In this document: positions 7,226-31,261 of the stretch, in pieces | Position numbering within the stretch: position 1 is the stretch's first letter | Layout: every line of letters starts with the position of its first letter | Assembly (NCBI GenBank): GCA_028819545.1 | Contig: JAPPLG010000016.1 | Span: 5,160-69,159 of the forward strand | Source: Bdellovibrionales bacterium | GTDB taxonomy: Bacteria > Bdellovibrionota > Bdellovibrionia > Bdellovibrionales > UBA1609 | DNA length: 64,000 nucleotides | Reading direction: 5' to 3' | Position numbers and translations under genes: made by a program | Notes under the pieces: generated by a model | What the model saw: only the letters and a program-made list of their open reading frames with translations | Databases searched by the model: none | Told to the model about the DNA's origin: nothing

Positions 7226-7248
7226 TTACATTAAGCTGTAGTCAGGGC
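7226..7248. repeat. Copy of the last 23 nt of the ETF-QO gene (direct repeat of 8478-8500)
   Basis: TTACATTAAGCTGTAGTCAGGGC vs TTACATGAGGCTGTAGTCAGGGC, 21/23 identical. The two copies bracket the ATPase gene. Confidence 0.65.
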
Positions 7249-7259
7249 TGAAAATTCTA

Positions 7260-8441
7260 TTATTTGAGAATTCTGCGGTACTTTTCTATTGTTTTTACAT
7301 AAGGTTCAACCCAAACATGTTCTCCAATTTTTCTACTTCTTTTTTCATAGAGAGAACAGATAATCACCGGAGTTTTTGGAAATTCTCTTTGAAAAGCTTT
7401 AATAGAATGTTTGTTTTTTATTTGCTTTCCAGATTTACATTCAATAGCCATAATCGGCTTTTTTCCAGAATGAATAAGAAAATCTATTTCCCACTTGTCT
7501 TTACGCCAGCACGAAATTTGATGTGCATACTCCATATAATCACGAACTCTAATAAGCTCATTGGCGACCCATGTCTCAAATAAAAAACCCAATTCCTCTG
7601 TTGCAGGTTTATCCGTCAACCTATTCTGAAGCGCCCTTACAATACCACAGTCAAAAAAATAAAATTTAGGACGAGCTTTTTTTCTCTCACTTCGATCAAA
7701 CGGCCAAATAAAACGACCCATCAAAGTATCCTCCAGAATAGAATAGTGCTCCTTCACTGTATTCATATGAACAGAGCATTCTCTGGAAATATTAGAAAAC
7801 TCAATCATTTGTCCATTACACTGAGCCGCTACATCTAAAAAACGGTAGAATGAACTTAAATTTCTAACCAAAGATTCTGCTTTTATCTCTTCTTTAATAT
7901 AGGTAGTGACATAACTTTTTAACTGCCTCACAACACGTTTATTTTGTTTTTGAGCTACCAAAGAAGAAATCAAAGGCAAAGATCCAAAAAGAAGAACATT
8001 ATGAATATTAAAATCTTTTCCTAACTCTTTTATAGTCAATGGATGCAGTTTTAAATCTAAAGCTCTACCGCCAAGTAAGTTAGACTTTCCTCTTTTTAAT
8101 TTCCGAGCACTTGAACCAGAAAGAAAAAATTGAAGATTTTTTTGGTCTATTCCCATTTGAACATAATCCAAAATAGATGGTACTTTTTGAATTTCATCAA
8201 TAATCACTTGAGAACCTGTTTTTAAAGCAGATATTTCTTCCCAAAACATCTGAGGGTGAGTTATGAAATCCTTCTCTAATTGAGGATCTAATAAATCATA
8301 AAACACAGCGCTTTTGCATTGACTCAGAAGATGTGTTTTACCTGTCATGCGAGGACCAAAAAGAAAACAAGAAGATGAGTAATCCTTCATATTCAGCTCT
8401 CTTTTATATATTATATTGTTATTTACGCTCATAAATAACAA
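7260..8441 (-). CDS. COG1373-type AAA ATPase with a C-terminal PD-(D/E)xK-like (DUF4143-type) module; true start may be 8432 or 8390
   Basis: Walker A GPRMTGKTHLL, Walker B VIIDEIQK, LSGSSARKLKRGKSNLLGGRA, and C-terminal WEIDFLI...AIECKSGK (D...ExK). Paralogous to 22471-23610 and 42862-44013. Confidence 0.85.
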   Translation of the reverse strand: MLFMSVNNNIIYKRELNMKDYSSSCFLFGPRMTGKTHLLSQCKSAVFYDLLDPQLEKDFITHPQMFWEEISALKTGSQVIIDEIQKVPSILDYVQMGIDQKNLQFFLSGSSARKLKRGKSNLLGGRALDLKLHPLTIKELGKDFNIHNVLLFGSLPLISSLVAQKQNKRVVRQLKSYVTTYIKEEIKAESLVRNLSSFYRFLDVAAQCNGQMIEFSNISRECSVHMNTVKEHYSILEDTLMGRFIWPFDRSERKKARPKFYFFDCGIVRALQNRLTDKPATEELGFLFETWVANELIRVRDYMEYAHQISCWRKDKWEIDFLIHSGKKPIMAIECKSGKQIKNKHSIKAFQREFPKTPVIICSLYEKRSRKIGEHVWVEPYVKTIEKYRRILK

Positions 8442-8452
8442 TATAATATATA
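8405..8452. promoter_or_regulatory. Perfect 21-bp-arm palindrome (6-nt spacer) at the 5' end of ATPase gene B
   Basis: TATATATTATATTGTTATTTA-cgctca-TAAATAACAATATAATATATA. It lies upstream of the likely start at 8390. Confidence 0.6.
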
Positions 8453-8477
8453 AATACTAGAATTGTAAAGCTCTTTT

Positions 8478-10079
8478 TTACATGAGGCTGTAGTCAGGGC
8501 CGGAGCCTCCCTCTCTTGGATTCCACCAGGGGCCTAAAACATCTGTAGCTTTGCAGTCCACACAGTTGGGTGCATTCACAATAAATTTTCCATTCTTTCT
8601 TTCATACACTCCAGCCGGACAAAAATTAATATAAAAATCCTGAACAGCTTCCGGAAGATCTTTGGAAACTTCCAAGTGAGAAGGAATATCATCTCTTGTT
8701 TTATTTCCGGAAAGATAAACAGCATCTGCTTTTGAATCAGAAGAAGTTTGATCTTTATTCAACAATCTTTTTTTCTGATGATCCGAAAGAAGTTTCTTCG
8801 GATTTAAATTTCCAGGAAAATAACCACCGCTGAGTATCATCAAACCCGCTTTGATAAATCCTATAATCTTTGCTTCCACCTGCAAAGTTCTTAAAACATT
8901 TCTCACCTTATACAAATCTTTACCAATAACAGATTTCTTCTTAATCACATCTTCAAAAGAAGCTGTTATGTTCCCCTGTTTTTTCTGAACTAAAAACTCA
9001 GCAGATGAAATCCCTGATAACATCGCATAATGAATACCTTTTAAAGAAGGGACGTTTACCAGCCCTGCCGCATCCCCCAATATAAAAACTCCTTCATCAT
9101 AAAGGCGGTCCGGAATACTATAAAAACCTCCTTCGGGAATCACCTTAGCCCCCCACTCCAAGCACTCTCCCCCTTCTAATATTTTTTTAAAAAGAGGATG
9201 CTCTTTCATCTCCTGAAATTTTTTATTTAAATTCCACTTGTTGGATGGATGATCCATCCCCGCCACCAAGCCAATGGAAATATTATTATTGGATAAAGGA
9301 TAGAGAAAGCTTCCTCCAAAACCTTCCAAAGGATACCCCACAGTATGGATGACATTTTTTGGAAGTTCTTTGACTTTCCATATCTCTTTTACCCCTAAAG
9401 CATATTGATCCGGATAATGAGAAGAAATATTTTTCCATTTCAACCAGGCTTGTGAAAGATTTCCCCTTACTCCATCTGCTAAAAAAATATTTTCAGCTAA
9501 AATATTCACAGGCTCCTGATACTGAGAAGTTTTTTCTCCATTTCTATCCAAACCGGAAGGTGTTGTTTGAATACCGATCACCTGACCTTTTTCTACAATC
9601 AGTTTATGAGCCGGAGTGCCCGGAAAAACATCCACACCCAACTCTTCTGCTTTTTTTCCAAGCCAGCGAACAACCTCACATAAAGAGGCTGTAAAGAAAC
9701 CCTTATTTCGCATCGTAGGAGGGGCAGGTATTCTGTATTGATTTTTTTTCGTCAGAAAATACATCTTTTCACTTTTCACAGATTGGCAAAAAGGCCAATC
9801 CTTGGATGTCATCTGAGGAAATAATTTTTTAAAAGCAACAGGATTGATAATAGAGCCGGAAAGGGAATGTCCTCCCAAACGTCCTGCTTTCTCTATCACC
9901 CCAATTTGCAAATCCGGAAGCAGTTGTTTTAAACGTATAGCTCCGGCTAAAGAAGCAGGGCCTGCGCCCACAAACAAAGCAGAAAAATTAAGAACTTCCC
10001 CTGAAGGACGTCCTTCAACAATTCTCTGATCCAAAGAATATTTTAATTGATAATCCTTTGGTATAAAACCTGAACCCAT
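8478..10079 (-). CDS. Electron-transfer flavoprotein:ubiquinone oxidoreductase (ETF-QO)
   Basis: 533 aa with an N-terminal FAD fold VGAGPASLAGAI and a C-terminal 4Fe-4S region FCPAGVYE...NAPNCVDCKATD. Confidence 0.9.
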   Translation of the reverse strand: MGSGFIPKDYQLKYSLDQRIVEGRPSGEVLNFSALFVGAGPASLAGAIRLKQLLPDLQIGVIEKAGRLGGHSLSGSIINPVAFKKLFPQMTSKDWPFCQSVKSEKMYFLTKKNQYRIPAPPTMRNKGFFTASLCEVVRWLGKKAEELGVDVFPGTPAHKLIVEKGQVIGIQTTPSGLDRNGEKTSQYQEPVNILAENIFLADGVRGNLSQAWLKWKNISSHYPDQYALGVKEIWKVKELPKNVIHTVGYPLEGFGGSFLYPLSNNNISIGLVAGMDHPSNKWNLNKKFQEMKEHPLFKKILEGGECLEWGAKVIPEGGFYSIPDRLYDEGVFILGDAAGLVNVPSLKGIHYAMLSGISSAEFLVQKKQGNITASFEDVIKKKSVIGKDLYKVRNVLRTLQVEAKIIGFIKAGLMILSGGYFPGNLNPKKLLSDHQKKRLLNKDQTSSDSKADAVYLSGNKTRDDIPSHLEVSKDLPEAVQDFYINFCPAGVYERKNGKFIVNAPNCVDCKATDVLGPWWNPREGGSGPDYSLM

Positions 10080-12414: not shown

Positions 12415-13446
12415 TTGAAATACCAAGAAATTTTAAAAACAGCTAAAGACGAACTCTCCCAGGCCCCAGATACGAATGCTTTGTATCAAGTTCGGGTGCG
12501 CTATTTAGGAAAAAACGGGACAATCACTTCTTTGATGAAAGAACTTAAAAACCTCTCCCCTGAAAAGCGGCCGGCATTCGGCCAACAAATCAATGAATTA
12601 AAAAACGCTATTGAAGAACATTATCAAAACCGTAAAAAAACTTTAAAAAAGTCAGAAATATCCCATGAAGTTTCAAAAGATTTTTTAGATTTAAGTCTTC
12701 CAGGCCCCACACCTAAAGGAGGGGCTTTTCATCCTATTGAGCAAATTATTCAAAAGACATCCTCTATTTTTACTCATCTGGGTTATAAAAAAGTGTCCGG
12801 CCCTTTAATTGAAACAGATTGGTATAATTTTTCTGCTTTAAATATTCCTCCGGACCATCCCTCTCGAGACAACCAGGACACTTTTTATCTGGACTCTGAA
12901 CATTTGTTAAGAACTCACACCAGCCCTGTACAAATCCGAAGTTTGGAAAGACTCAAGCCCCCTTTGGCTATTATTGCTCCCGGCGCTGTTTTCAGAAGAG
13001 ATGAAATTGATTCTTCTCACTCCCCTCACTTTCATCAAATGGAAGGTTTGTTTATCGACCGAAAAGTTTCTATGAGCCACCTGAAAGGCACACTATCTTA
13101 TTTTTTAAAGGAACTTCAAGGCTCTTCTGCAAAGATTAGATTTCGCCCAAGCTTTTTCCCATTCACAGAGCCTTCCGCAGAATATGACAGCTCTTGTTTT
13201 ATTTGCAAAGGAAAAGGATGCTCTCTTTGTAAAGGCACAGGGTGGATTGAAATTGGAGGTTGTGGTTTGGTTCATCCCCAAGTTTTAAAAGCCAGTGAAG
13301 TTAATCCTGAAAAATGGCAGGGGTTTGCTTTTGGAATGGGCATGGACCGACTGGCCTTATTGGAATACGGCATTCCTGATATTCGCTTGTTTTATGAAAA
13401 TAGAATGAGCTTTCTGGAGCAATTTGAAAATGCTTTATTCTTTTAA
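12415..13446 (+). CDS. pheS: Phenylalanine-tRNA ligase alpha subunit
   Basis: 343 aa with class II motifs (DTFY, FRRDEIDSSHSPHFHQMEG, FRPSFFPFTEPSAE, GMGMDRLA). TTG start. Confidence 0.95.
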   Translation: MKYQEILKTAKDELSQAPDTNALYQVRVRYLGKNGTITSLMKELKNLSPEKRPAFGQQINELKNAIEEHYQNRKKTLKKSEISHEVSKDFLDLSLPGPTPKGGAFHPIEQIIQKTSSIFTHLGYKKVSGPLIETDWYNFSALNIPPDHPSRDNQDTFYLDSEHLLRTHTSPVQIRSLERLKPPLAIIAPGAVFRRDEIDSSHSPHFHQMEGLFIDRKVSMSHLKGTLSYFLKELQGSSAKIRFRPSFFPFTEPSAEYDSSCFICKGKGCSLCKGTGWIEIGGCGLVHPQVLKASEVNPEKWQGFAFGMGMDRLALLEYGIPDIRLFYENRMSFLEQFENALFF

Positions 13447-15895
13447 TTGGTTAAATGAATTTATTTCCCTTTCAGACCTTCAACCGCAGGACTTAGCTCA
13501 ACTGCTGAATGAAAGAGGCTTGGAAGTGGAAGCTTTATCCTCTGAGAAATTAGATCATGTGGTTATCGGTCAGATCACCAAAATTTACCCTCATCCTAAT
13601 GCTGATAAACTTCAAATATGCCATGTAAAAAAAGATAAAGACCAGGCTCCCCTATCTATAGTATGTGGAGCAAAAAATCCAAAAACTGGAGACAAAGTGG
13701 TTCTCTGTTTGGAAGGGGCGGTTCTTCCTGGAAATTTTAAAATTCAGGAAAGAAAAATTCGAGGAGAACTCAGTCAGGGAATACTTGCTTCCAAAAAAGA
13801 ACTTGGAATCTCTTCTGAAGACGACGGGGGTATTTTCATTTTACCCACATCTGCTCCCATTGGAAGCAGACTGGATGAATACTTAAAAACAAATGACACT
13901 ATTTTAGACGTATTTATTCCTCCCAACCGGGTGGATTTAATGAGCCACATTGGACTGGCACGGGAGCTTTCAAGCTTATTGGACAAACCTTTTCGCTTCC
14001 CTTTTGAACCTTATCATCATAAATCAAACACTTCCAACTTAGGAATTCCCAAAGGGCAAATGAAATATTCCAAAAGCCCTAAACTTCCTTTTGTTCCTTA
14101 CAAAAATTCTTTTAATGTCAAAGTATATGAAACTGATATTTGCCCCTATTACAGCGGACAAATGATGAAAGACGTACAAATCGGCCCCTCCCCCTACTGG
14201 CTTAAAAAAAGATTGGAATTGTTGGGTGTCAATTCTGTGAACAACATTGTTGATATCACCACCTGGATTTTACTGGAATGGGGCCAGCCTCTTCATGCCT
14301 TCGACTTGGACACTTTAGAAGGAGGCATCCACGTCAAAAAAGCAAAGTCCAAAGATCAAATGCTGGCTTTAAATGAAGATCAACTGACATTTCGAGGCGA
14401 TGAATTAGTCATTCGCGATGATAAAAAAAATCTGGCTTTAGCAGGTGTCATTGGCGGAAAAAGCAGTGCTATTTCTGATAAAACAAAAAATATTTTTATT
14501 GAATCCGCTGTATTTGCTCCTTATGACGTTCGACGTACTGCCAGGAGACTTGGCTTAAATACAGCATCCTCCTTTCAGTTTTCAAGAGGTGTCTTTCCCC
14601 ACACATCAATGCTGGCTCTACAAAGAGCCTGCTCACTGATCCAACAAGTTGCAGGAGGCTCTTTACAGGGAAGTCCTTACGAAGAAGGATCTTTTTCATT
14701 TGCACAAAAATCCATTACTATCAACCAAGAACAACTCAATGAACGTCTAGGGTATGAAGTTCCTCTGAATGAATTTACCGATTGGATGAAAAAAATGAAC
14801 TCCAAAGTGACAAAAAGATTTAGCAACATAAAAGTCACTCCTCCTTATTACAGAAAAGATGTAAATATTAAAGAAGATCTTATTGAAGAGTGGGCCAGGC
14901 TGAAGGGTTATGATTTTGTGCCGAAAGAGCTTCCGGTCTTTGCTCCTCAAAAATCTTTAAACAATAAGGAATTGAACTTTCTTGAGCGGATCAAACATAC
15001 TGTTAAAGAGCAAGGATATTATCAGGCTATTAATTATAGTTTTGTAGATCATACACTGCATAGTGAATTTTTAGGTGAAAAACCTGTTGCAGATATACCT
15101 CTTGGCCCTCCTATTTTTCTCACTAACCCCATCACTCAGGATTTGAACAGTCTTCGCCAGAGTTTGCTCCCCGGGCTTTTTCAAAATTTACTTTTTAATA
15201 TGCGGCATGGAGAAGATTTCGGACGGCTTTTCGAACAAGGGATCAGTTTTTTTAAAACAGGAAATAGGTTTGAAGAAAAACAGTATTTATCTTTTATGGT
15301 GTGGGGGCAAAAAAAAGACATATGGAATTCCAATCCACGTCCAACTCTTTTTGATTTGAAAAGCTCTATAGACAATTTATTAACATTGATTCAGGCTCCT
15401 GATTGGACTTGGACGGATTTTGAAGGTTCATTTCCATTTTTACATACAAAAAGACGCCTTTTACTAAAAATACAGGGGCAAACAGTGGGTTTTATTGGAG
15501 CTATCAACCCTATGTTGTCAGATCAAAATAAAATTCGAGGTGATATCTCGATGGGGGAGCTAAATCTATCTTTACTCTTGAATATTCCAAAAACAGAGTT
15601 CAAGTTCCAAAAACCTTCCCTCTTACCTTCTGTAAAAAGAGATATCTCCCTTCTCATCCCTAATGAGCAAAATGTAGAAGAAATTTTAAATTTTATGAAA
15701 AGTCATGCTCCTGCAGAATTCCGTCAAATCTCTCTTGTTGATTATTATGAAGGGGTTCAGAAGGGATTTCGATCTGTTTCTTTCCGTTTTATCATTCAAG
15801 GTTCTGATAAAACCCTCTCTGAAAAGCAAATCAGCTCCCTTCAACAGCCTATGGTAAAGGCTCTGTTAAAAAAATATCCTGTTCAGATTCGATAA
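13424..15895 (+). CDS. pheT: Phenylalanine-tRNA ligase beta subunit
   Basis: 823 aa with an N-terminal FNWLNEF and tRNA-binding domain (HPNADKL), plus B3/4, B5 and C-terminal FDX-ACB-like regions. Overlaps the pheS stop. Confidence 0.95.
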   Translation: MKMLYSFNWLNEFISLSDLQPQDLAQLLNERGLEVEALSSEKLDHVVIGQITKIYPHPNADKLQICHVKKDKDQAPLSIVCGAKNPKTGDKVVLCLEGAVLPGNFKIQERKIRGELSQGILASKKELGISSEDDGGIFILPTSAPIGSRLDEYLKTNDTILDVFIPPNRVDLMSHIGLARELSSLLDKPFRFPFEPYHHKSNTSNLGIPKGQMKYSKSPKLPFVPYKNSFNVKVYETDICPYYSGQMMKDVQIGPSPYWLKKRLELLGVNSVNNIVDITTWILLEWGQPLHAFDLDTLEGGIHVKKAKSKDQMLALNEDQLTFRGDELVIRDDKKNLALAGVIGGKSSAISDKTKNIFIESAVFAPYDVRRTARRLGLNTASSFQFSRGVFPHTSMLALQRACSLIQQVAGGSLQGSPYEEGSFSFAQKSITINQEQLNERLGYEVPLNEFTDWMKKMNSKVTKRFSNIKVTPPYYRKDVNIKEDLIEEWARLKGYDFVPKELPVFAPQKSLNNKELNFLERIKHTVKEQGYYQAINYSFVDHTLHSEFLGEKPVADIPLGPPIFLTNPITQDLNSLRQSLLPGLFQNLLFNMRHGEDFGRLFEQGISFFKTGNRFEEKQYLSFMVWGQKKDIWNSNPRPTLFDLKSSIDNLLTLIQAPDWTWTDFEGSFPFLHTKRRLLLKIQGQTVGFIGAINPMLSDQNKIRGDISMGELNLSLLLNIPKTEFKFQKPSLLPSVKRDISLLIPNEQNVEEILNFMKSHAPAEFRQISLVDYYEGVQKGFRSVSFRFIIQGSDKTLSEKQISSLQQPMVKALLKKYPVQIR

Positions 15896-15896
15896 A
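15833..15896 (+). repeat. Native pheT terminus: 64-bp sequence repeated perfectly at 23638-23701
   Basis: AGCTCCCTTCAACAGCCTATGGTAAAGGCTCTGTTAAAAAAATATCCTGTTCAGATTCGATAAA is identical at both positions. A diverged third copy lies at 22007-22053. Confidence 0.95.
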
Positions 15897-15960
15897 CCAC
15901 AAGCCATTCTTGTACGTAAAAGTTATTCTGAACTTGTTTCAGAATCCAGTGCATAGGAAA

Positions 15961-16065
15961 TACTTTGTATAAGCGGCTCAAAGCTCAAACATGCGTTTGC
16001 CACAGAACAACTTTCAGTCGTTCTGTGATCAAATCCGAACTCATTTGAGCCGCTTATACAAAGTA
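15961..16065. repeat. IR-flanked hairpin-core element, copy 1 (core in reverse orientation)
   Basis: 22-bp perfect IRs TACTTTGTATAAGCGGCTCAAA / TTTGAGCCGCTTATACAAAGTA flank a 61-nt core at 15983-16043. Confidence 0.9.
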
Positions 16066-16272
16066 TGTCCCTGCAAAGACAGGAGGCCAGCTTATATGCT
16101 ATGTAAAGGCTTGTTCTGTAAATTCCACCTAATATTACTCTATACATATAAAAGTTCTGTTAAAAACAAAGTAATTGAAAAATTTACACTTTTCTAAACA
16201 TCCTCTGTCAGTTTTATGAAGATTATGGTATAAAAACAAATCCATAACGTTGCTAAAGAGGATGTATTTTAC

Positions 16273-19200
16273 ATGAATACCCTGATTAAAAGTGTGTATT
16301 TAAAAAGCTGTACCCATTTTTTGTTTGTTTTCTTTTTTACACTTCCATCTCAATCTTTAGAGGAAACTTTCAATCTTTCACGCCCCTTCACAGTAACACA
16401 ATCTAGTTATCGACCAAATACTTTAGAAGAAAGCTTATATTACATGGAACTTTATGAGTTTCTTTCTAAAAATAAACATGCATTATCACTTTTAGAGTCT
16501 GCTCGAAAAGGCGGTGTACACTACAATTCTGCTCAATCAGAATTCAACAGATATTTATCAAACCCAGTATCTAATTTGAGAGAAGGTTTTGATTTGATAA
16601 ACAGAAATACTCATTTGAAGGCCAAAGCTCAGATAGGGGCTAAAATTTCAAATGCAGATATTGGATTATCCGCTGAAGTAGATTTAAAACGCCTTGGAAA
16701 TGACATATTAAATAGCTTGAGTAGTAAAGAATACAATCAAAAAGTTACAGACACTGCCCAGTTTTATACAAGAGAGATTTATGCGTGCTTAGAAAATAAT
16801 AATCAATGCTCTATAAATGCTCAAGTTCATCAAATACAAGCCTTGAAAGCCATACGATTCCATTTTCACGATTTTCCACAAGACAAAGATCAAGAAGGAA
16901 ATCGTTTAAACTTTGAAGAAAAATCCCAATATGCTTCTCCAGCACAAATAGAAATGGCAACTACTCTTTTTAATACTCATCAGCTACGAAGTATCTCAAC
17001 ACAAAATGAACAGAACACAGAAGAAATAATAAACGCCGTGAATACAAATACAGAGAGTGCTCAACAAATATCTCAGAAAGAAAAAGAGGAAATAATAACA
17101 GCAATAAATAAACATACAAAAAATATACAAGAGTCAGCTCTTATAGAAATGGAAAGGCTAGAACATCTAAGAAGAGAAAATATGAGACAAAACGATCCAG
17201 ATTATATGAATAGAGACCCAATTGTTCTGGCTACAAATAATAGTATTCAATCATGGGAAAAAGAAAAAGAACAAATCGCATCAGAGCTAGAGCAAGGCTC
17301 CATCACACAGGAAGAATACAGTAAAGAAATAGAAAACATTGATCGTACAATAAAAGAAAAACAGATAGATATTCAAGTTTATGAATTTAAAAAACACATA
17401 CAAAACGGAATAGCATGGGCGAATGCTGTAGAAGCAACTGGAAGAGTATTAGGAGCTCCAGAAGAGATCATCCAATTAAGCCGTGCAGGCTCAGCCAGCA
17501 TGCAAACAATCGGTGCTATAGGATCTATGTTTATAGCAGGATCCATAGACCCCACAGGGCTGACTTTAGCCCTTAATGGTGTTTCAATGCTTATCACAGC
17601 AATTTCAAATAATCCTAACTCAGAACAAATAATGATAGAACTGCTTGATGGCTTAAGAAAAAGACAAATACAAATTCTAAATAAACTTAATGAGATAGAC
17701 TTTAAAGTTGAAGAAATTCAACTCAAAGTGAATCATATTATTGAAATACTCCAAATGAATCATAATCAAATAACAGAAAAATTAGATCGAATTACAGATG
17801 ATCTGCAAAGAATTGAAAGTGAAATGATACTTGCAATAACAGAAGCAAAGTCCACTACAATGAAAGAGTCCCAAAAAAGAGGAGCTTTTTTTACTGATGA
17901 CGGCAGGGTGGTATTGGATGTATTAGAAAATTGGGAAAGACCTCATTTGAATGAAGTTATATCTCAATGTAAACACTATAAAGATCAATACGATAAAACT
18001 GGAAATATTAGATTTTACGACGACTATAATTGGTGTATTGATAAAGCTAGAAACCAACTCTTCATGATACAAGAAAGTTTGTCTGATATGTATCAAAAAT
18101 CCAGACACCGTTTTGGATCAGACACTTATATTGTGGAACAAAGTATTAATAAACTGAGCATTGAACAAGTTATTGATGAATGGAATAAATTAGTAGAAGA
18201 CCGAATTGGGATTTTCTCATCTATACACCCTTGGTTGAATCAACAATATTCAAAATATATGGCAAGCGACAGAAGATTCGGAGGCTTGTGGGCGGAAAGC
18301 CAGCCTCAGTGGGATGAATACAGACAGTTTTTAAACCGCATAAGAGAGGTGAATATTAAACATCCCTTATTTTATGATGAAGTTTTATCAGTATATGCAC
18401 CTTTAACAGAAAAACTTCCACTCCCCAAAAATCTCAGTTTTATCACAGAATCTAACATCACAGACTATAAAGATGCTCACCTGACTGAAATGTGCCAAAA
18501 TCTGAAACATATTGAAGATTTGTCTCAATACAATAGAGACCACCTCCAAAGAGCATGGCTGGTTTACCTTTATCTATCTGATCAATTGAAAAGGCAATTA
18601 AATAATCTAATGGAGAAACATATTGATCAATTAATAGAAAGACACGAAGAGCAAAGTAATAGCTTTGTTAACACTCCCGCCCTAAAAGAGCCAGACTGTA
18701 ACTGCAGTAGTAATTATGCACAAACAGAAGCAAAATTTTTCCAATATATATCCAGCCAAAAACAAACAGATATTTTTAGATACATTCAAAATCAAGGATA
18801 CAATATACATGATTTTATGAATATAAATCCTGAAGAAACTGCTCGAAAAGCCAGCAGGCGCCCTCATATAACCAACCCCTATCTTCTTCAAGAAGGATTT
18901 TTCAAAACTGTTCAAACTGGATGTGGAATGACAAGTAAAGGCCAGAGAAAAGACGTGGCCGATTTAAATCAACCCAAACAAGCAGAATTATTTGAAAAAA
19001 CACTGGAAGAAGTGCGAAGAGGATCACAAGGTGGCTGCTGGTTTATTGATCAATACGGTCTTTTTGGACAAACAGGCCAAAAAATACAATTAAGTCAACA
19101 GACAGGGCCTTATGAGTTTGAAGGTAGAGCTTTGGAAACAATGTGCCCCATTTTCGTTGTGAAGAAAACAGAAGGAACTATGAAAGATGAAGTGCAAAAG

Positions 19201-20349
19201 AGAGCTATCTGTTTAGAAACAAAAATACACAAGCTTGAAACCATATCAACACTGGATAATCTAGTTTTTGAAAATCTGTATGATTGGCCTGAAAGCCTCC
19301 CCATTGGAAAAGATTTAAAATTTATTGAAGAATCCCGTAATAAAATTTTTCATAATGAAAAACAAATTGATATTAATGAGCCTGCAATTTACGTATTCTT
19401 TAGGCAAAAAACTATGAAAGAAAACCCTGTTTATCATACAAAGCACAGCAGTTCTTTTATAAACTATAATTCAGCTAATAACACAACACCCAAAGAAGGA
19501 GGCCTTTTTACACTAAGTCATTATAAAATAGCTTATGGCTATTCCCGACAGCAAAGTGAAATAGTAGATTCTCCGCACTATAGAACTCCTGATTCTCCAG
19601 AGTACATTGGTAATATGACTTTGCAGAATCGAAATGGCAATACCATTTCATTTGGAAAATATAATGGTATTATTGAAGATAATACATATCAACAGGTGGA
19701 AACAGCTACTCAAAATAATTACCCAATCAGAATAGACACTCAATGGATTCGAGGAAATTTCGATAAACAAAATTATTGGACCATTAAAGATAATCTAGAT
19801 TATGAAAATACGGACAGCCATGGAATATGCCTTAAAAAAGCTTGTTTGGAGTATGAAGAAATAAAAGAGGCAGATAGAGAAGCCTGGATTCAAACAGCCG
19901 CTCAACACATAAGACAACTACAAGGTTTTTTAAACACTGATATTAAGAGATGGATCAACAAAGCCAATCTTGAAAATGATGACAATACTCCAAAACTGCA
20001 TATGTTGCTGCCAAAAAGTGCACTGGTTTTAGATACAATGGCTAGAGCTGGATACGGACAGTCTTTAGAAACACAGCCCGATTTATTAAATATAGTTGAA
20101 GAAATAAAATCATTAAAAGAAAAAATAAACACTCAAAATACAGAACAAATATTAAAAATTATTCAAAGTTTAAGAGATTTAAACGCTAATCAAGGTATTC
20201 CCTCTCTGCCTATTCAACCGATAGTACAAGAGGTGCCTGTCGGACTGGGAGACACCAAAAGCCGACATCAGGCCTTAAATATTATATTGAACAGAAATTA
20301 TCTCAGCCCAAGAGAATGTCGCTATTTAAAAAGAAGAGAACAACAATGA
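16273..20349 (+). CDS. Giant secreted coiled-coil protein of unknown function
   Basis: 1358 aa with an N-terminal signal-like segment and long charged heptad-like regions. A ~45-aa Gly/Ala-rich hydrophobic segment is encoded around 17479-17612. Confidence 0.75.
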   Translation: MNTLIKSVYLKSCTHFLFVFFFTLPSQSLEETFNLSRPFTVTQSSYRPNTLEESLYYMELYEFLSKNKHALSLLESARKGGVHYNSAQSEFNRYLSNPVSNLREGFDLINRNTHLKAKAQIGAKISNADIGLSAEVDLKRLGNDILNSLSSKEYNQKVTDTAQFYTREIYACLENNNQCSINAQVHQIQALKAIRFHFHDFPQDKDQEGNRLNFEEKSQYASPAQIEMATTLFNTHQLRSISTQNEQNTEEIINAVNTNTESAQQISQKEKEEIITAINKHTKNIQESALIEMERLEHLRRENMRQNDPDYMNRDPIVLATNNSIQSWEKEKEQIASELEQGSITQEEYSKEIENIDRTIKEKQIDIQVYEFKKHIQNGIAWANAVEATGRVLGAPEEIIQLSRAGSASMQTIGAIGSMFIAGSIDPTGLTLALNGVSMLITAISNNPNSEQIMIELLDGLRKRQIQILNKLNEIDFKVEEIQLKVNHIIEILQMNHNQITEKLDRITDDLQRIESEMILAITEAKSTTMKESQKRGAFFTDDGRVVLDVLENWERPHLNEVISQCKHYKDQYDKTGNIRFYDDYNWCIDKARNQLFMIQESLSDMYQKSRHRFGSDTYIVEQSINKLSIEQVIDEWNKLVEDRIGIFSSIHPWLNQQYSKYMASDRRFGGLWAESQPQWDEYRQFLNRIREVNIKHPLFYDEVLSVYAPLTEKLPLPKNLSFITESNITDYKDAHLTEMCQNLKHIEDLSQYNRDHLQRAWLVYLYLSDQLKRQLNNLMEKHIDQLIERHEEQSNSFVNTPALKEPDCNCSSNYAQTEAKFFQYISSQKQTDIFRYIQNQGYNIHDFMNINPEETARKASRRPHITNPYLLQEGFFKTVQTGCGMTSKGQRKDVADLNQPKQAELFEKTLEEVRRGSQGGCWFIDQYGLFGQTGQKIQLSQQTGPYEFEGRALETMCPIFVVKKTEGTMKDEVQKRAICLETKIHKLETISTLDNLVFENLYDWPESLPIGKDLKFIEESRNKIFHNEKQIDINEPAIYVFFRQKTMKENPVYHTKHSSSFINYNSANNTTPKEGGLFTLSHYKIAYGYSRQQSEIVDSPHYRTPDSPEYIGNMTLQNRNGNTISFGKYNGIIEDNTYQQVETATQNNYPIRIDTQWIRGNFDKQNYWTIKDNLDYENTDSHGICLKKACLEYEEIKEADREAWIQTAAQHIRQLQGFLNTDIKRWINKANLENDDNTPKLHMLLPKSALVLDTMARAGYGQSLETQPDLLNIVEEIKSLKEKINTQNTEQILKIIQSLRDLNANQGIPSLPIQPIVQEVPVGLGDTKSRHQALNIILNRNYLSPRECRYLKRREQQ

Positions 20350-21980
20350 AAATTTTAATTTACTTCATAATCACTTTAGGTCTTATAAACTGCAGTCAAG
20401 GGCTTGCTACCGATGAACCTTCGAAAACTCCCGCTCTTTCCGAACAACTTGAAGAAACCACAGAAGAGCCAATAAACTCACTTAAAACACAAGTGTTTAC
20501 TTTTGACCAAATCAAAGCTATGACTCCCTCTGAAATAACAATCCGAATAGGCAAAGATAAATCTATTCCTCATTTTAAAGATTTTGAAAACTGGCCATTA
20601 TACGAGTTAAACACACAACAGTTGGGAAGACTATTTTATCAAATTATTCTACACGGATATCTTGGTAATGTCACACCTGAACAAATTCACTCTATAAGAC
20701 CAGAATCAATAAACAGAATAGACTATATTATAAGATGCCTCTCCCCTGAGCAAACAAAAGCTATGACTCCAAAACAAATTTCGAGAGTTTGGACATTTGA
20801 TTTTACTCCAGAACAAGTTGCACAGCTTAATGCCAGTCAAATAAACTCTTTATCCAGCAATGATCTCACTGCTGAAAAAGTACATGTCATCTCTCCTGAA
20901 ACTATCACAGAAATAGGTCACTATAGCATACCTTTTGATCGATTAACACGCGCTCAAGTGGAAGCCGTCACCCCTGAACAAATCTCTTATGTAGATGAAT
21001 ATGGACTTCCTGGGGATGGAATTTCAAAGTTTACAGTCGAACAAATCCCATGGCTGACTCCTGAACAAATTTCAGCTCATCCTATCGAAGTCATTCAATT
21101 TCTAAAACCAGAACAATTAGCGGCCATGTCTCACGAACAATTACAAGCTATCTCTATAGAAAAATCTTACGAGTTCAAAGACCGCCACTTGAGAGCTTTA
21201 TCCTTTAGCCAGCTTTTACTATTTGAGGAAAATCATAAGATCGATACAATTATAGGCTTTTCAGCTAACGGAAGACAGTTTTTCCAACAAACAAACCCTA
21301 AAGATTATCCACAGTATGAATACTATATGCAGTTTATTTTTCCAAATGACTTTAAACATGTCTCTTATACACAGGCTTTAAGTTTTTCTCACAATTTACT
21401 GGCAGTGTTAAGCCCTGAGAGAATCAAGTGGATGCCTTATTATGCCAAAGTACTAACCCCTCAGTTGATTCAAAAAGATGCTACTGAGCCAGATAAGTGG
21501 TTGATCACAAAAGAGCAGTTTCAAGCTATTCCTGTAGAGCAGATACCAGATTTGAGTTTAGAATTTCTTGAAGCCATGACTAATGAGCAAGTTTATTGGT
21601 TTACTTTTGAGCAGCTCGCTCACCTGAATAGAGATCAATTAAAAAGACTTTTTACTTCTGGATTTAGTGAACGCCCGCCTATGCACGTCCCAAAAGTATT
21701 TAGCATTATACATATTGCTGAACAAACAGAAGAGGGAGATGAGTGGCTAAGAGGCCCTATGAAGGAAGTGATTATGGAACATATGGAAATAGAATGTGCA
21801 CAATTTTATGGTTGCAGAGAGAGATGGATGAAATTTCCTGATCTTCCACAAAGCATGAAAGATAGTTACTTTTCCCCTCCTCCTCAGCCTGAAGAACCTA
21901 TCTTAACTTATTTGCCACATCTAATCGACTGTCAGCAACTTAGCAATCTTATAACCAATAGTAAAAATAGATCAAAATGA
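20346..21980 (+). CDS. Lipoprotein with degenerate ~10-aa TPEQI-type repeats
   Basis: Probable start is MKILIYFIITLGLINC (lipobox) at 20346, overlapping the upstream stop as ATGA. Many copies of [LF]TPEQ[IV]xx[LIM]. Confidence 0.7.
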   Translation: MKILIYFIITLGLINCSQGLATDEPSKTPALSEQLEETTEEPINSLKTQVFTFDQIKAMTPSEITIRIGKDKSIPHFKDFENWPLYELNTQQLGRLFYQIILHGYLGNVTPEQIHSIRPESINRIDYIIRCLSPEQTKAMTPKQISRVWTFDFTPEQVAQLNASQINSLSSNDLTAEKVHVISPETITEIGHYSIPFDRLTRAQVEAVTPEQISYVDEYGLPGDGISKFTVEQIPWLTPEQISAHPIEVIQFLKPEQLAAMSHEQLQAISIEKSYEFKDRHLRALSFSQLLLFEENHKIDTIIGFSANGRQFFQQTNPKDYPQYEYYMQFIFPNDFKHVSYTQALSFSHNLLAVLSPERIKWMPYYAKVLTPQLIQKDATEPDKWLITKEQFQAIPVEQIPDLSLEFLEAMTNEQVYWFTFEQLAHLNRDQLKRLFTSGFSERPPMHVPKVFSIIHIAEQTEEGDEWLRGPMKEVIMEHMEIECAQFYGCRERWMKFPDLPQSMKDSYFSPPPQPEEPILTYLPHLIDCQQLSNLITNSKNRSK

Positions 21981-22006
21981 AAATTTTAATTTACTTCATA
22001 ATTGAT

Positions 22007-22117
22007 GCTGGTGAAAGCTCTGTTAAACAAATATCCTGTTCAGATTCGATAAACCACAAGCCATTCTTGTACGTAAAGGTTATTCTGAACTTGTTTCAGA
22101 ATCCAGTGCATAGGAAA
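22007..22117 (+). repeat. Diverged internal copy of the pheT terminus plus downstream left-end module
   Basis: 22007-22053 aligns to 15850-15896 with several substitutions. 22054 onward is near-identical to 15897 onward. Confidence 0.85.
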
Positions 22118-22224
22118 TACTTTGTATAAGCGGCTCAAATGAGTTCGGATTTGATCACAGAACGACTGAAAGTTGTTCTGTGGGCAAAACGCATTTTTGA
22201 GCTTTGAGCCGCTTATACAAAGTA
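22118..22224. repeat. IR-flanked hairpin-core element, copy 2 (core in forward orientation, inverted relative to copy 1)
   Basis: Same 22-bp IRs as copy 1. The core at 22140-22202 equals the reverse complement of 15983-16043, differing only by two 1-nt indels and one substitution (61 vs 63 nt). Confidence 0.9.
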
Positions 22225-22403
22225 TTTCCCTGCTTCAACACTTCCTTCGGTTGACACTTCATCACTTCGCTCCGAACTTGATCCGGAATCCAGTCGTACT
22301 TGCAGACATTCGATCAGCAGTTTCGGTTGACACCTACACTGCCTCGCCCCCTGCAAAAGCAGGGGTCCAGCTTACATGTAAAGGCTTACTCCATAGACTC
22401 CAC

Positions 22404-22429
22404 TTAACATTACTCATGAGTAATGTTAA
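22404..22429. promoter_or_regulatory. Perfect 13+13 bp palindrome upstream of ATPase gene C
   Basis: TTAACATTACTCA|TGAGTAATGTTAA, 42 nt upstream of ATG 22471. TTGACA at 22436-22441 follows. Confidence 0.55.
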
Positions 22430-22470
22430 CTATACTTGACATTACTCATATCTCATATTACTCTCTTTTC

Positions 22471-23610
22471 ATGGTTGAAAAGCGTTATTTATTTTCCCAC
22501 ATTCAAAAAGATTTAAAATCCAAAATGGTTTTTATCGGCGGAGCCAGACAAGTCGGTAAAACCACCTTGGCCCTTAAATATTTAAAACCTTCTGACCCCA
22601 AACATCCAGCTTATCTTAATTGGGATATTTCTTCTCATCAGGAGAATATTATCAAAAATCAAATTCCACTGAAATTTAAAACAATCGTTTTTGATGAAAT
22701 ACATAAATACGTAAAATGGAGAAATTTTATGAAGGGCCTCTATGATGAACACCATAGAACTCATTCTTTTTTAGTGACAGGGTCTGCCCGCTTGGATTTT
22801 TTTTCAAAAGGAGGTGACTCCCTTTTGGGAAGATACCACTATTACCGCTTGCATCCGTTTTCCTTATTCGAAATCAATAAAAATCCAACTCGAAAAGATT
22901 TAGAGCAACTGCTCACATTCGGAGGGTTTCCAGAGCCTTTTTCAAAACAATCCAAAACATTTTCAAAAAGATGGTTTCGAGAAAGAAGAAAAAGGGTGAT
23001 CCAAGAAGATATTAGAGATTTGCAAAAAATTAAAGAAATTTCCTATATCGATCTTCTGATAGAAGCTCTTCCAAGCCGAGTTGCTTCTCCTTTATCAATT
23101 CGCTCTATAAAAGAAGATCTACAGGTCAGCCACCAATCTATCGAAAACTGGATACAAATATTGGAAAACCTTTACATGATCTTCAGAATACCCCCTTACG
23201 GCTCCCCTCAAATCCGAGCTGTAAAAAAAGAACAAAAACTGTACTTTTTTGATTGGTCGCACATCTTGGATGAAAATATTAAATTTGAAAACTTAGTAGC
23301 CAGTCACCTGCTCAAATACTGCCATTACCACGAAGATATTAATGGAGATGATATGGAATTGAGGTTTTTAAGAGATACAGACAAACGAGAAGTAGATTTT
23401 GTGGTTTTAAAAAACAAAAAACCACTATTTGCCGTCGAATGCAAAGCAGGAGAAAGAGCTCTATCCCCCCATCTCAAGTATTTTAAAGAAAGAACCCCTA
23501 TTCCTTTATGGTTTCAAGTGCATAGAGGAAAAAAAGACTATGGAGACGAAAAAACAACAGGAAGAGTTTTACCATTCACCACATTTTCTAAAGATCACCT
23601 CAAGTTATAA
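22471..23610 (+). CDS. COG1373-type AAA ATPase with a C-terminal PD-(D/E)xK-like (DUF4143-type) module
   Basis: Walker A GGARQVGKTTL, Walker B VFDEIHK, and C-terminal REVDFVV...AVECKAGE. The start MVEKRYL at 22471 is preferred over the ORF-track start at 22423, which lies inside the palindrome. Confidence 0.85.
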   Translation: MVEKRYLFSHIQKDLKSKMVFIGGARQVGKTTLALKYLKPSDPKHPAYLNWDISSHQENIIKNQIPLKFKTIVFDEIHKYVKWRNFMKGLYDEHHRTHSFLVTGSARLDFFSKGGDSLLGRYHYYRLHPFSLFEINKNPTRKDLEQLLTFGGFPEPFSKQSKTFSKRWFRERRKRVIQEDIRDLQKIKEISYIDLLIEALPSRVASPLSIRSIKEDLQVSHQSIENWIQILENLYMIFRIPPYGSPQIRAVKKEQKLYFFDWSHILDENIKFENLVASHLLKYCHYHEDINGDDMELRFLRDTDKREVDFVVLKNKKPLFAVECKAGERALSPHLKYFKERTPIPLWFQVHRGKKDYGDEKTTGRVLPFTTFSKDHLKL

Positions 23611-23637
23611 CACATACCAAGCTCCAATAGAGCCAAA

Positions 23638-23701
23638 AGCTCCCTTCAACAGCCTATGGTAAAGGCTCTGTTAAAAAAATATCCTGTTCAGATTCGATAA
23701 A
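23638..23701 (+). repeat. Perfect 64-bp copy of the pheT 3' end, right boundary of the composite insertion
   Basis: Identical to 15833-15896. It is followed by unrelated sequence leading into the ihfA-like gene. Confidence 0.95.
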
Positions 23702-23745
23702 AAAGAGTTGTCTTTTGATCCAGTTGGCTTTAAATACAAAAAATC

Positions 23746-24048
23746 ATGTCAAATAAAGAGATGAAACATACAGATACATACACCAAAAATGATATCATAA
23801 ATGCAGTCTATAATGAGATCGGCTATTCCAAAAAATACTCTACAGAACTAGTGGAATTTTGTTTTGATATTATTAAAGAGAAATTGAGAACCAATCATAA
23901 TGTAAAAATTTCTAATTTCGGACATTTCATACTGAGAGATAAAAAAGCCAGAGTAGGAAGAAACCCCACAACAGGACTTAACTTAACTATTCCTTCAAAA
24001 AGAGTAGTGACTTTTCGCCCTAGTGTATTTTTAAAAAGAAAGGTTTAG
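23746..24048 (+). CDS. ihfA: Integration host factor alpha / HU family DNA-binding protein
   Basis: 100 aa with GRNPTTG...RVVTFRPS arm motifs. pheS-pheT-ihfA is a conserved operon arrangement in many Proteobacteria. Confidence 0.85.
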   Translation: MSNKEMKHTDTYTKNDIINAVYNEIGYSKKYSTELVEFCFDIIKEKLRTNHNVKISNFGHFILRDKKARVGRNPTTGLNLTIPSKRVVTFRPSVFLKRKV

Positions 24049-24053
24049 TTTTT

Positions 24054-24455
24054 ATGCTAGATAAAGAACTCACTGATCAATGGATGGAAGAACAATTAGA
24101 TAAAATCCCCTCAAAGCTCTCATTCAGAATTGGTGAAGTGGCAAAGATTTTATCTATCAAGCCCTATATTCTTCGCTACTGGGAGTCTGAATTTGACCAG
24201 TTACGCCCCGGTAAAATGGACAACAAACAAAGGCTTTATTTCCATAAAGACATTGAAACGCTTTTATTGATAAAAAAGCTTCTTTATAAAGACGGCTACT
24301 CTATTCGCGGCGCCAAACAAGCCCTAAAATCACTCAGCAAAGAATTTAAAACAGTCAAAAAAGAACATTACTCTAAAGACCGCGTCTATCGGGAAATCTC
24401 AGGCCTTTTAGATCAAGTCTCCAAATTTAAAACAATTGTTAAAAACGCAAAATAA
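24054..24455 (+). CDS. MerR family transcriptional regulator
   Basis: 133 aa with an N-terminal HTH FRIGEVAKILSIKPYILRYWESEF. Confidence 0.8.
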   Translation: MLDKELTDQWMEEQLDKIPSKLSFRIGEVAKILSIKPYILRYWESEFDQLRPGKMDNKQRLYFHKDIETLLLIKKLLYKDGYSIRGAKQALKSLSKEFKTVKKEHYSKDRVYREISGLLDQVSKFKTIVKNAK

Positions 24456-28021: not shown

Positions 28022-29536
28022 AATGTGATGTATTTTTTCAAATTCTTTTCCCTGCCAATGCTCTCAGGAATTCTGGCCGCTACAAGCTATATTCCCTTTC
28101 CTCCCTGGGCTGTGCTTTTTTGCTTCATCCCCTTATGGCATTTTTGTTTAAAAAATACGCAGGAGATCAAAAAATTATTTATTGCAGGGTGGCTTACACA
28201 ATTCATTTGGACTCTGATTGGTTTTCACTGGGTGGCCTACACTATCCATATCTATGGAGGTTTTAACTGGTATATTTCAATAGCGGGGCTTTTGGCATTT
28301 TGTTCTTTTGCCCATATACATATTCCTCTAGCTCTTGTGGCGTGGTCTTATTTTATACGTTTGATTCCACCTGTTCAGTGGATGCGTCTTCTTGCTCTGG
28401 CTTCCTTAATTTCTCTCGCTCTTTCTCTTCCGATGCTTTTTCAATGGAACTTTGGATACACTTGGTTTTGGGCTAAATTTCCGATCTTTCATACAGCAGA
28501 GCTTTGGGGCTTTCAGTTTATATCGACTTTAACAATATTGCTTCAAGTTTGTTTTTATTCTTTAAGAAATAAAAAACTAATAGCCATTGGTTTAAGTTTT
28601 TTCTTTCTGCTCAATGTTTTTGGATTTGTTTTGGCAAAAAAACTGGGAGAGCCTGACTCCACAGCAAAGGTGCTTCTCGTACAACACAATATTGGAAGTA
28701 CAATGGAGCTTAGGGGGCTTCGTAGTGATATCTATCAAAAAGTTTCAAGCACACTAATAGATCTTACGACAAAAACCTTAGACAGCTCTGTAGATTTTAT
28801 TTTATGGCCTGAGGGGGCTTATCCATACTTAGTGTTAAAAGGCAAAAAATCCACTATAGATTTAAAAAAAACTGTACAAAATAAATTTCAAACAACTTTA
28901 ATTACAGGAGCTTCGACTCGTGTAGGAAGAGATATCACCAATTCCATTTTCTTTATTGATGCTAAGGGAAAGTTGAACCCCAGAAGATATGACAAAAATA
29001 TACTTCTGGCTTTTGGAGAATATATTCCCGGGGATCGTTGGTTCCCGCAATTGAGAAAGATTTTTTTAGGAAGCCACCAGGCTTTTAAGGCAGGAGAAGA
29101 GGGTCCCTCTGTCAGAGAAGTAAGAGGTATTCGTTTGGGTCTTCAAATTTGTTATGAGAGTTTGTCTGATTTATTTTCAAGAAGTTTATCTCAACAGAGT
29201 GCAGATATATTGATCAATCTGACAAATGACTCATGGTTTGGCTGGTGGTATGAGCCTTATCAGCATTTGTATATGACTTTTGCAAGGGGCATTGAACTGA
29301 GAAAGCCTATGGTGAGATCCACCACGACGGGCATTTCTTCGGCCATGGATGCTTATGGAAATATATTGGAGAAATCTCCTATCCGAGAGCCTTGGGCAAA
29401 AATTGTTGAGGTGCCTTACTCTTCAAAGCATCATCCCACTTTGTTTGAAGGCATTGGTTACTATATTAATGTGGTTGTTTTACTTCTTCTACTACTTACA
29501 CTTTTATCTTCCCGTTTCTTCCAAAAAAGAAAATAA
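27971..29536 (+). CDS. lnt: Apolipoprotein N-acyltransferase; true start probably 28013-28058
   Basis: N-terminal polytopic membrane part and a C-terminal CN-hydrolase domain with the LGLQICYES motif. The ORF-track start overlaps the divergent upstream gene. Confidence 0.88.
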   Translation: MLAFKTHSFMLYHNMFHNVMYFFKFFSLPMLSGILAATSYIPFPPWAVLFCFIPLWHFCLKNTQEIKKLFIAGWLTQFIWTLIGFHWVAYTIHIYGGFNWYISIAGLLAFCSFAHIHIPLALVAWSYFIRLIPPVQWMRLLALASLISLALSLPMLFQWNFGYTWFWAKFPIFHTAELWGFQFISTLTILLQVCFYSLRNKKLIAIGLSFFFLLNVFGFVLAKKLGEPDSTAKVLLVQHNIGSTMELRGLRSDIYQKVSSTLIDLTTKTLDSSVDFILWPEGAYPYLVLKGKKSTIDLKKTVQNKFQTTLITGASTRVGRDITNSIFFIDAKGKLNPRRYDKNILLAFGEYIPGDRWFPQLRKIFLGSHQAFKAGEEGPSVREVRGIRLGLQICYESLSDLFSRSLSQQSADILINLTNDSWFGWWYEPYQHLYMTFARGIELRKPMVRSTTTGISSAMDAYGNILEKSPIREPWAKIVEVPYSSKHHPTLFEGIGYYINVVVLLLLLLTLLSSRFFQKRK

Positions 29537-29780
29537 AACCAAAAGTGGTCTATCAATGCCCATTTTTGGTCACCTTTGATTATAAAAATATTAATCTTAA
29601 GAGTTTTAAATTTTTTAAACCTTCAAAAAGACTGATAAAAAATAAGACTCTTTAAGAAACTATGTGTTTTCAAAAAGCTGTCCATAAGTTTGCATGTCCT
29701 TTTTAGAGGAAATGAGCATATACATCTAAACATAAATCAACTTTGACATTTAACCATATATATGGCAGTATGGTAATAAG

Positions 29781-30477: not shown

Positions 30478-30479
30478 TA

Positions 30480-30915: not shown

Positions 30916-30964
30916 TTTTACCTCCTTTTAAAAAATTAGTTTTTCTTTTAACAACAAACTGAGT

Positions 30965-31141: not shown

Positions 31142-31261
31142 GTTTTAACCCCCTTCTTGACAGAAAAGGCCGGGTTCTAAGAGCAAGGAACAAATTCTCC
31201 CTTATACTTCCGGCCTTGTTAAGCTGTGTGAAATTAACAAAGCACAGCCTAAGTTATTAAA

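Follow-up and report, generated by a model that had tools for sequence, protein, structure and literature searches.

The gap between pheT and the ihfA-like gene, in the 64-kb stretch of Bdellovibrionales DNA analysed here (the window, W in comparisons), is a recombination hot spot in a family of uncultured Bdellovibrionales. It holds two modules, C-I and C-II, set one behind the other between copies of the pheT terminus, with the working pheT gene intact in front of them. The same architecture recurs within the 64 kb at three further gene ends, unrelated in sequence, with repeats of 23, 67 and 44-156 nt; gene addition with orphan gene ends is general in this genome and not the work of a pheT-specific element. 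Serial integration of fragments from related genomes is considered somewhat probable as the origin: a homologous exchange within the gene end and an illegitimate joint at the far side (Campbell-type integration, or homology-facilitated illegitimate recombination, HFIR) would displace the old terminus, and later conversion and deletion would reshape the array. Coordinates are window positions unless a relative's pheT locus (L0xx) is named. Features of the locus and its flanks are as follows.

12415-13446, plus strand: pheS (Pfam tRNA-synt_2d, 2.6e-93).
13424-15895, plus strand: pheT, intact, conserved left flank of the hot spot (five Pfam PheT domains, FDX-ACB to residue 823).
15833-15896, plus strand: left repeat T, comprising the last 58 nt of working pheT, the stop codon and 3 nt; 100% identical to 23638-23701.
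22007-22053, plus strand: T', orphan terminus copying the final ~45 nt of pheT; the pheT frame reads (L)VKALLNKYPVQIR, then the stop.
23638-23701, plus strand: right repeat T, orphan pheT terminus adjoining the ihfA leader; orthologous copy at L004 13968-14040.
23702-23745, plus strand: ihfA leader, 44 nt; the same 44 nt follow pheT at empty sites.
23746-24048 and 24054-24455, plus strand: HU/IHF-family gene and merR, conserved right flank (Pfam).

The perfect 64-nt direct repeat on which the preliminary description of this DNA was founded is real by sequence comparison (15833-15896 equals 23638-23701). The third, diverged pheT-end copy that it reported ends at 22053 and is recognisably similar from about 22007. 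The 25-nt core of the repeat occurs exactly 3 times in 64 kb, versus 0 times in 100 shuffles. pheT, stated to be kept intact, is so: its Pfam domains are present, the gene ends within the left repeat, and direct repeats holding its 3' end flank the modules. The database entry for PheT begins two codons after the start of the 823-aa open reading frame (ORF). The right flank is conserved, with 91-96% amino acid identity of the HU/IHF gene and merR over six genomes; the leader is 88-93% identical to L006 12469-12510 and L004 14040-14083.

Between pheT and the HU/IHF gene lie the interior genes named earlier, a 1358-aa ORF, a 554-aa ORF and an AAA_14+DUF4143 ATPase (Pfam), each module being headed by a left-end sequence.

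15897-16140, plus strand: left-end sequence 1 (LE1), its identity with LE2 being 97% as far as 16070 and about 80% beyond.
15956-16070, no strand: palindromic element of 115 nt, with 27-bp perfect arms and a 61-nt centre (inverted-repeat comparison).
16273-20349, plus strand: C-I gene 1, encoding 1358 aa, the N terminus signal-peptide-like; L007 homologue at 15235-19158, 69% nucleotide identity.
20316-21980, plus strand: C-I gene 2, 554-aa repeat-rich lipoprotein (Pfam ALTTAQ_rpt, 4.3e-10); L007 homologue at 19158-20927.
21976-22002, plus strand: about 9 opening codons of a third, paralogous gene that is then cut off; perfect copy of 20345-20371.
22054-22415, plus strand: left-end sequence 2 (LE2), holding the palindromic element at 22113-22229 with its centre flipped.
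22405-22460, plus strand: palindromic repeats (TAACATTACTCATGAGTAATGTTA and a second copy), travelling with the ATPase gene (direct/inverted-repeat comparison).
22423-23610, plus strand: C-II AAA_14+DUF4143 ATPase (Pfam); likely start 22471, giving 379 aa.

Both modules do open with the same left end (15852-15982 versus 22009-22139, 97% over 131 nt). Similarity goes on at about 80% (16069-16140 versus 22349-22415), with ~117 additional nt in LE2 at 22234-22348. The centre of the palindromic element (61-63 nt) is inverted between the copies at 15956-16070 and 22113-22229. C-I ends abruptly: the truncated third gene, noticed before, consists of 27 nt that match the beginning of the 554-aa gene (20345-20371) perfectly and are fused to T'. 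On its sequence, the cut gene at 21976-22002 reads as an illegitimate junction. An analogous fragment is present in L007 (20932-21012 versus 19101-19181). The likely start of the 554-aa gene is 20346 (MKILIYFIITLGLINC), with the lipobox LINC.

The pheT loci of relatives were gathered and ranked by PheT identity (L003, L004, L006, L007, L008, L009, L013, L014). Their pheT-ihfA gaps are in the following states.

L009, PheT 87%: occupied; 76 nt in common with LE2.
L004, PheT 86%: ATPase module only, then its own pheT-end copy just before ihfA.
L006, PheT 82%: empty; pheT, 44-nt conserved leader, ihfA.
L008, PheT 81%: empty, as L006.
L007, PheT 80%, 2.07-Mb contig: C-I homologue (1307 aa and 589 aa) and other genes, then its own pheT-end copy just ahead of ihfA.
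L003, PheT 76%: three unrelated reverse-strand ORFs, no repeat.
L013 and L014, PheT 49-50%, distant: pheT-ihfA-merR adjacent, ihfA after about 115 nt.

Empty sites had been predicted among relatives and were found in L006 and L008 (44 nt) and in L013 and L014 (about 115 nt); different cargo, also predicted, occurs in L003 and L009. C-I and C-II are separable, with only the ATPase module in L004, only the large-protein module in L007, and a pheT-end copy proper to each. Since empty, single-module and other-cargo states all occur among the relatives, the pheT-ihfA gap is an insertion hot spot. The pheT-end copy of L004 is 73 nt long and 86% identical to its own pheT, the last 30 nt being identical. 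In L007 a truncated third gene is fused to a 79-nt pheT-end copy that has one mismatch and lies 8.6 kb away from pheT. C-I differs at its right junction, the fusion being to pheT position about -47 in the window and about -86 in L007; the L007 joint, analogous in kind, shares the bases CTC.TT. The pheT-end repeats begin at about -47, -64 and -86, and in L007 the left junction has moved by several nt. Material to the left of C-I also differs between the window and L007. By eye, the L003 insertion appeared to be flanked by a diverged duplication of the leader; this was dropped after a shuffle test (p = 0.55). An IHF alignment, used to scan JGI, brought up a single locus, distant and irrelevant.

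These states could be derived from a single ancient composite insertion, the present pattern being purely differential loss through recombination between repeats. Loss of C-I (L004), of C-II (L007) or of both (L006, L008) gives what is observed, and the junction of ATPase and T is orthologous in the window and L004. Such a history leaves the origin of the internal T' and of the three other sites of the same build unexplained, however, and it sits poorly with C-I right junctions and left-hand material that differ between the window and L007 and with orphan copies that look like separate alleles. It is regarded as rather improbable.

The serial arrangement might also be owed to assembly, strain variants, or an excised circle and an empty site, having been strung together through the 64-nt repeat. 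The window sequence is identical to ENA ERZ23495468 scaffold_906, a short-read metagenome scaffold; an independent Logan contig of the same run (SRR10996925) breaks inside the 64-nt repeat, at 23672; and the alternative pairing over the perfect repeat (an empty site and a 7.8-kb circle) uses the same k-mers. A break at that point is, however, as expected for any real 64-nt repeat. The path from C-I through T' and LE2 to the ATPase is unique, having the 117-nt insert, the flipped centre and substitutions of its own. A typical Illumina read is longer than 64 nt, so spanning reads could resolve the repeat (an assumption for SRR10996925, made from the assembly alone), and the window contains 0 N. 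The same architecture stands in L004, where the two copies are 86% alike and not confusable, and on the 2.07-Mb contig of L007, with copies 8.6 kb apart. An artefact is unlikely as the source of the arrangement; its chance is put as very slight.

Sites 2 to 4, which repeat the architecture of the pheT site within the window, comprise the following.

7226-8500, minus strand: site 2; ETF-QO terminus 8478-8500, DUF4143 ATPase 7260-8441, orphan terminus 7226-7248 (Pfam).
42787-44164: site 3; metallophosphoesterase terminus 42787-42853 (plus), DUF4143/AAA_14 ATPase 42862-44013 (minus), orphan 44098-44164 (Pfam).
2584-5132, no strand: site 4; 225-aa gene whose end occurs in triplicate, at 2584-2627, 3897-3952 and 4976-5018.
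2877-3761, minus strand: one-gene module of site 4, 294-aa ORF.
4125-4499, minus strand: one-gene module of site 4, 124-aa aspartyl-protease-like ORF; no ATPase at this site.

The site 2 repeat is 23 nt long, includes the ETF-QO stop codon and has 2 differences, both synonymous (shuffle p < 0.0005); the second DUF4143/AAA_14 ATPase has the ETF-QO and HIT genes as its neighbours here. Around the annotated start of this ATPase (8441) is a perfect 23-bp inverted repeat (8403-8425/8432-8454), which from its sequence may be an operator. At site 3 the repeat is of 67 nt and 94% identity, and the orphan retains reading frame and stop codon, TAA as against TAG in the working metallophosphoesterase gene. 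The three copies of site 4 bracket its two modules; copies 2 and 3 extend through the end of a convergent TENA gene (to 4065 and 5132), and the empty state of this site is found at L006 332-1692. Left junctions lie within about 8 nt of a stop codon at all four sites.

Variable content was also seen between the apolipoprotein N-acyltransferase gene and a pilin-like gene. The window has a PIN-domain gene there (29536-31262). L006 (18336-21580) has a RES-domain cluster, with a 33-nt direct repeat (97%) flanking about 2.4 kb, and L004 (19883-19943) has nothing comparable.

In the frame of the host gene the orphan copies stay open up to a terminal stop codon. Over all sites together, 22 synonymous and 12 non-synonymous changes separate orphan from working copies. 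Of random changes in the orphan-copy sequences, 23% would be synonymous; an in-place duplication whose orphan drifts freely, while its working copy accepts silent changes only, would give 37%. The synonymous excess departs from in-place duplication with neutral decay at P = 0.0012. The TENA fragment alone has 8:0 changes, at third positions, over 75 nt, followed by one frameshift and one replacement (P = 0.0023). Because of this excess the orphans resemble termini from different alleles of the host genes, which recombination among diverged genomes either imported or left behind.

There are also signs that exchange between repeats continues. At third codon positions W and L004 have diverged by about 28%, but only 6/64 positions separate their orthologous orphan T copies (P = 2.5e-4), whereas the spacer adjoining T is much more diverged. 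The two T copies within W are identical (P about 6e-5 under free drift), against just 86% identity for the orthologous pair in L004. Recent gene conversion or crossover, rather than the extent of an att site, is the best reading of the perfect 64 nt.

From these layouts we infer an order of events and an enzymology of RecA-type exchange and end joining. A donor fragment from a related genome would carry the conserved end of the flanking gene and then cargo. One homologous exchange within that gene end would integrate the fragment, its other end being closed by an illegitimate joint; the joint would either circularise the fragment before a Campbell-type single crossover or, with a linear fragment, join it straight to the chromosome (HFIR). 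The working gene would stay whole, and the old terminus would be pushed downstream as an orphan still attached to the sequence that formerly followed it. At pheT, the ATPase module C-II would have arrived first, giving pheT-LE-ATPase-T-ihfA, the state of L004. C-I, from a donor with pheT end, left end, C-I and the start of the third gene, would then have been added in front, pushing T', LE2 and the ATPase downstream. Afterwards the direct repeats would recombine: gene conversion would keep the copies alike, and deletion between repeats would remove modules and restore clean empty sites.

Several observations agree with such a course. Each orphan at pheT keeps its old follower: T leads into the ihfA leader, as at empty sites, and T' into LE2 and the ATPase, as in L004. 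The pattern of an anchor with attached orphans also holds at site 4. At the non-homologous end of C-I there is an illegitimate joint, the third gene being cut after about 9 codons and fused to T'. The duplicated stretch of C-I runs from the joint (pheT position about -47) to the point where the left ends diverge (16070/22229), which is what a single exchange of the pheT-end/left-end region with the donor would give. An element-encoded recombinase is not needed for homology-guided integration. Of the two mechanisms offered in the preliminary description, the homology-guided one fits better and in-trans site-specific integration is less favoured, because there are four unrelated targets, repeats of 23-156 nt, C-I junctions that differ, and no recombinase genes.

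Some points weigh against homology-guided integration. The 23-nt repeat of site 2 is short for a RecA-dependent crossover. Neither a circular or excised form nor a donor allele matching an orphan exactly was observed in the assembled sequences. The distribution of modules could equally derive from one old composite island with differential loss. The synonymous bias does not separate homologous from site-specific integration, because coding constraint would act likewise on a substitute terminus carried by an element. The identical last 25-30 nt of all pheT-end copies could be a recombinase core, and a recombinase encoded beyond the 64 kb covered could act in trans. Nor does such integration explain the hairpins followed by TCCAG that lie just 3' of pheT at four occupied sites (degenerate in L003).

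As first reported, no recombinase is encoded in the window: 0 ORFs of at least 100 aa have a recombinase or transposase Pfam domain in 64 kb. Neither gene nor remnant of a recombinase was found in the seven window modules or in the cargo of L003, L004 and L007. For an integron, window ORFs have no integrase domain (Pfam), and the repeat that separates the units is a host gene end. For a transposon with target-site duplication, there is no transposase (window, Pfam), the repeats, at 23-156 nt, are not of fixed length, and the orphans resemble foreign alleles. A fixed crossover core has mixed evidence: the last 25-30 nt are common to all pheT-end copies, but repeat starts and the L007 left junction vary.

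The modules might still be decayed or cargo-only site-specific elements (cis-mobilizable elements, CIMEs, or degenerate elements of tycheposon type), serially integrated at an att site in the pheT 3' end, with the recombinase lost or acting in trans. Gene-3'-end direct repeats around tandem modules, beside an intact target, are the classic layout of att accretion (PMC5704250; tycheposon islands), the identical core lies beside the stop codon in every pheT-end copy, and a substitute terminus borne by an element would evolve under coding constraint likewise. Against this stand the lack of any recombinase gene or remnant in the modules listed above, the several specificities that four unrelated targets in 64 kb would require, the spread in repeat length, the C-I right junction that differs between the window and L007, and the size of several modules, only about 1.1-1.3 kb with one gene each. 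Site-specific accretion is thought unlikely, and it is kept in consideration because the 25-30-nt core is common to all copies and the genome was seen over 64 kb.

Hairpins with 6-8-bp stems followed by (A/G)TCCAG(T/C), often with GTCAT before them, occur 3' of pheT in the window, L004, L007 and L009.

15923-15950, plus strand: 8-bp hairpin, then TCCAGT; related hairpins at the occupied sites of L004, L007 and L009.
22271-22294, 22349-22372 and 44313-44340: further window copies, the list there being completed by 15923-15950.
L004 12544-12720; L007 12675-13307 and 14088-15020; L009 3862-3890: copies in relatives.

One copy belongs to site 3. L003 has only a degenerate GCAGGGGTCCAGG, found by eye and missed by the scans, and the empty pheT-ihfA sites have no hairpin-TCCAG motif. 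Stems vary between copies and yet stay paired (ATTCCGGA, ATACCTGC, ATGCCTGC, ATTCTGAA). The hairpin half-units of L007 form a 19-nt tandem array. LE2 22271-22346 matches L009 3868-3943 over 76 nt, with a score of 92 versus a null maximum of 28. The hairpins were also considered as ends of an IS200-type transposase gene of L007 and rejected as such; that gene lies 9 kb upstream and has its own, different flanking hairpins (CCCCGTGCAAGCACGGGG). Within the L007 insertion, a 444-aa ORF (13621-14955) has an HNH domain that is weakly IscB-like (7e-8, a long way short of the family cut-off). About 1 kb of hairpin-rich repeats lies ahead of it, and because a reverse-oriented hairpin copy lies inside the ORF, the gene call may be wrong.

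The 115-nt palindromic element folds, as a single strand, at -37.5 kcal/mol (z = -10.7). Its flipped centre could be due to inversion mediated by the arms, to a strain polymorphism brought in by recombination, or to flip-flop in the population. A 184-nt unit in 2.6 tandem copies (95% matches) occupies 47159-47629, beside tRNA-Gln (47646-47717, minus strand); its ~75-nt core is homologous to the centre of the palindromic element and has compensating changes in the inner hairpin. The shared core makes the palindromic element a member of a dispersed family of structured repeats in this genome. The family has no Rfam match. At the gathering threshold Rfam gave only a tRNA; with permissive settings the left end yielded nothing beyond a miRNA-hairpin match below threshold. 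The left-end palindrome, searched for as an exact pattern, has no match in viral contigs or JGI metagenome contigs. A promoter/terminator scan gave fewer hits than in shuffles and was uninformative.

The 1358-aa protein has 0 matches in Pfam, NCBIfam and PADLOC, and module cargo carries no toxin/immunity signature in the same three databases. The C-II ATPase has the Pfam AAA_14+DUF4143 pair, and its match to the PADLOC candidate anti-phage family PDC-S01 (2.1e-51) makes it a candidate phage-defence gene. Its homologues are of 379 aa. The palindromic motif (ACATTACTCATGAGTAATRTTAAC) is present in 2-3 copies about 20-70 nt upstream of the pheT-site ATPase start at every locus (window 22405-22460; L004 12740-12800; L011 7928-7981; L012 7914-7979) and is probably, from its position, the gene's own operator/promoter. 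The repeats do not travel with the ATPase gene, as had been considered: its closest homologues (89% and 81%) are at unrelated loci with no flanking repeat, and homology with these loci covers ~70 nt of operator-like upstream sequence and the gene, ending at the stop codon. As the gene has no such repeats around it elsewhere, they belong to the insertion event and not to the cargo.

Machinery so far undescribed could make long target duplications in place at stop codons, perhaps by means of DUF4143 AAA-ATPase/PD-(D/E)XK proteins. All three DUF4143 ATPases of the window, the cargo of 3 of the 7 modules and mutually 23-40% identical, are bracketed by a duplicated host-gene end; DUF4143 is placed in the PD-(D/E)XK nuclease superfamily (PMC3424549); and the left junctions are within about 8 nt of the stop codon at 4/4 sites. 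The ATPases were nevertheless rejected as the cause of the duplications, the same build being found with repeats and without ATPase at site 4 and in the L007 insertion. The closest homologues of the pheT-site ATPase stand elsewhere with no flanking repeat, the orphans resemble foreign alleles and not decayed in-place duplicates (P = 0.0012), and repeat lengths are far more variable than known transposases give. This machinery is judged very doubtful. A dedicated, undescribed capture of single-gene cassettes at the stop codons of conserved genes, with long repeats of host sequence and no classical integrase, is given little chance; it might involve the DUF4143 AAA-ATPase/PD-(D/E)XK proteins or the covarying hairpin-TCCAG motifs.

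Most variable hot spots of bacteria are without mobile-element genes, and the route by which DNA enters them is mostly inferred. Footprints are unusually readable here: orphans are in frame, differences are mainly synonymous and the former neighbour is still attached, so that the order of events can be reconstructed. If true, serial integration by homologous exchange and illegitimate joining would be natural evidence that one-sided homologous recombination adds genes beside essential genes without disrupting them, a candidate phage-defence gene among those so added. Four sites in 64 kb suggest that the process is frequent in this uncultured Bdellovibrionales lineage. A scanning rule follows, namely to seek, a few kb downstream of each gene, orphan copies of its 3' end, and could measure how common the process is.

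Like the tandems of integrative conjugative, integrative mobilizable and cis-mobilizable elements (ICE/IME/CIME) of Streptococcus (PMC5704250), the pheT array leaves the target gene intact and has recombinase-free units between att-like repeats. It differs in having no integrase or relic in modules or window, variable repeats and junctions, four unrelated targets in 64 kb, and some modules of one ~1.2-kb gene. Tycheposon islands of Prochlorococcus (bioRxiv 10.1101/2020.12.28.424599) likewise have proximal arrivals that push older material along and partial copies of the target gene scattered through them; their tyrosine recombinases and tRNA-gene targets are not seen here. Integron cassette arrays share the serial addition at one site of small, mostly single-gene units that displace older ones. 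Here, in contrast, there is no intI, attI or attC, the units bring their own promoter/operator, and what is repeated is the end of a host gene. Among described processes, the displacement model for orphan rhs tips and the effector-immunity arrays of the Vibrio cholerae type VI secretion system (T6SS) (Kirchberger et al. 2017, PMC5361080) comes closest. Both have a conserved upstream anchor gene, an illegitimate far joint, older 3' pieces and downstream genes pushed along, and serial arrays built without a dedicated recombinase. In place of polymorphic toxin tips with immunity genes, the anchors here are housekeeping genes (pheT, ETF-QO, phosphoesterase, TENA) whose ends are conserved sequence. 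The orphans are of 23-156 nt, the cargo consists of independent genes, and several loci of one genome are involved.

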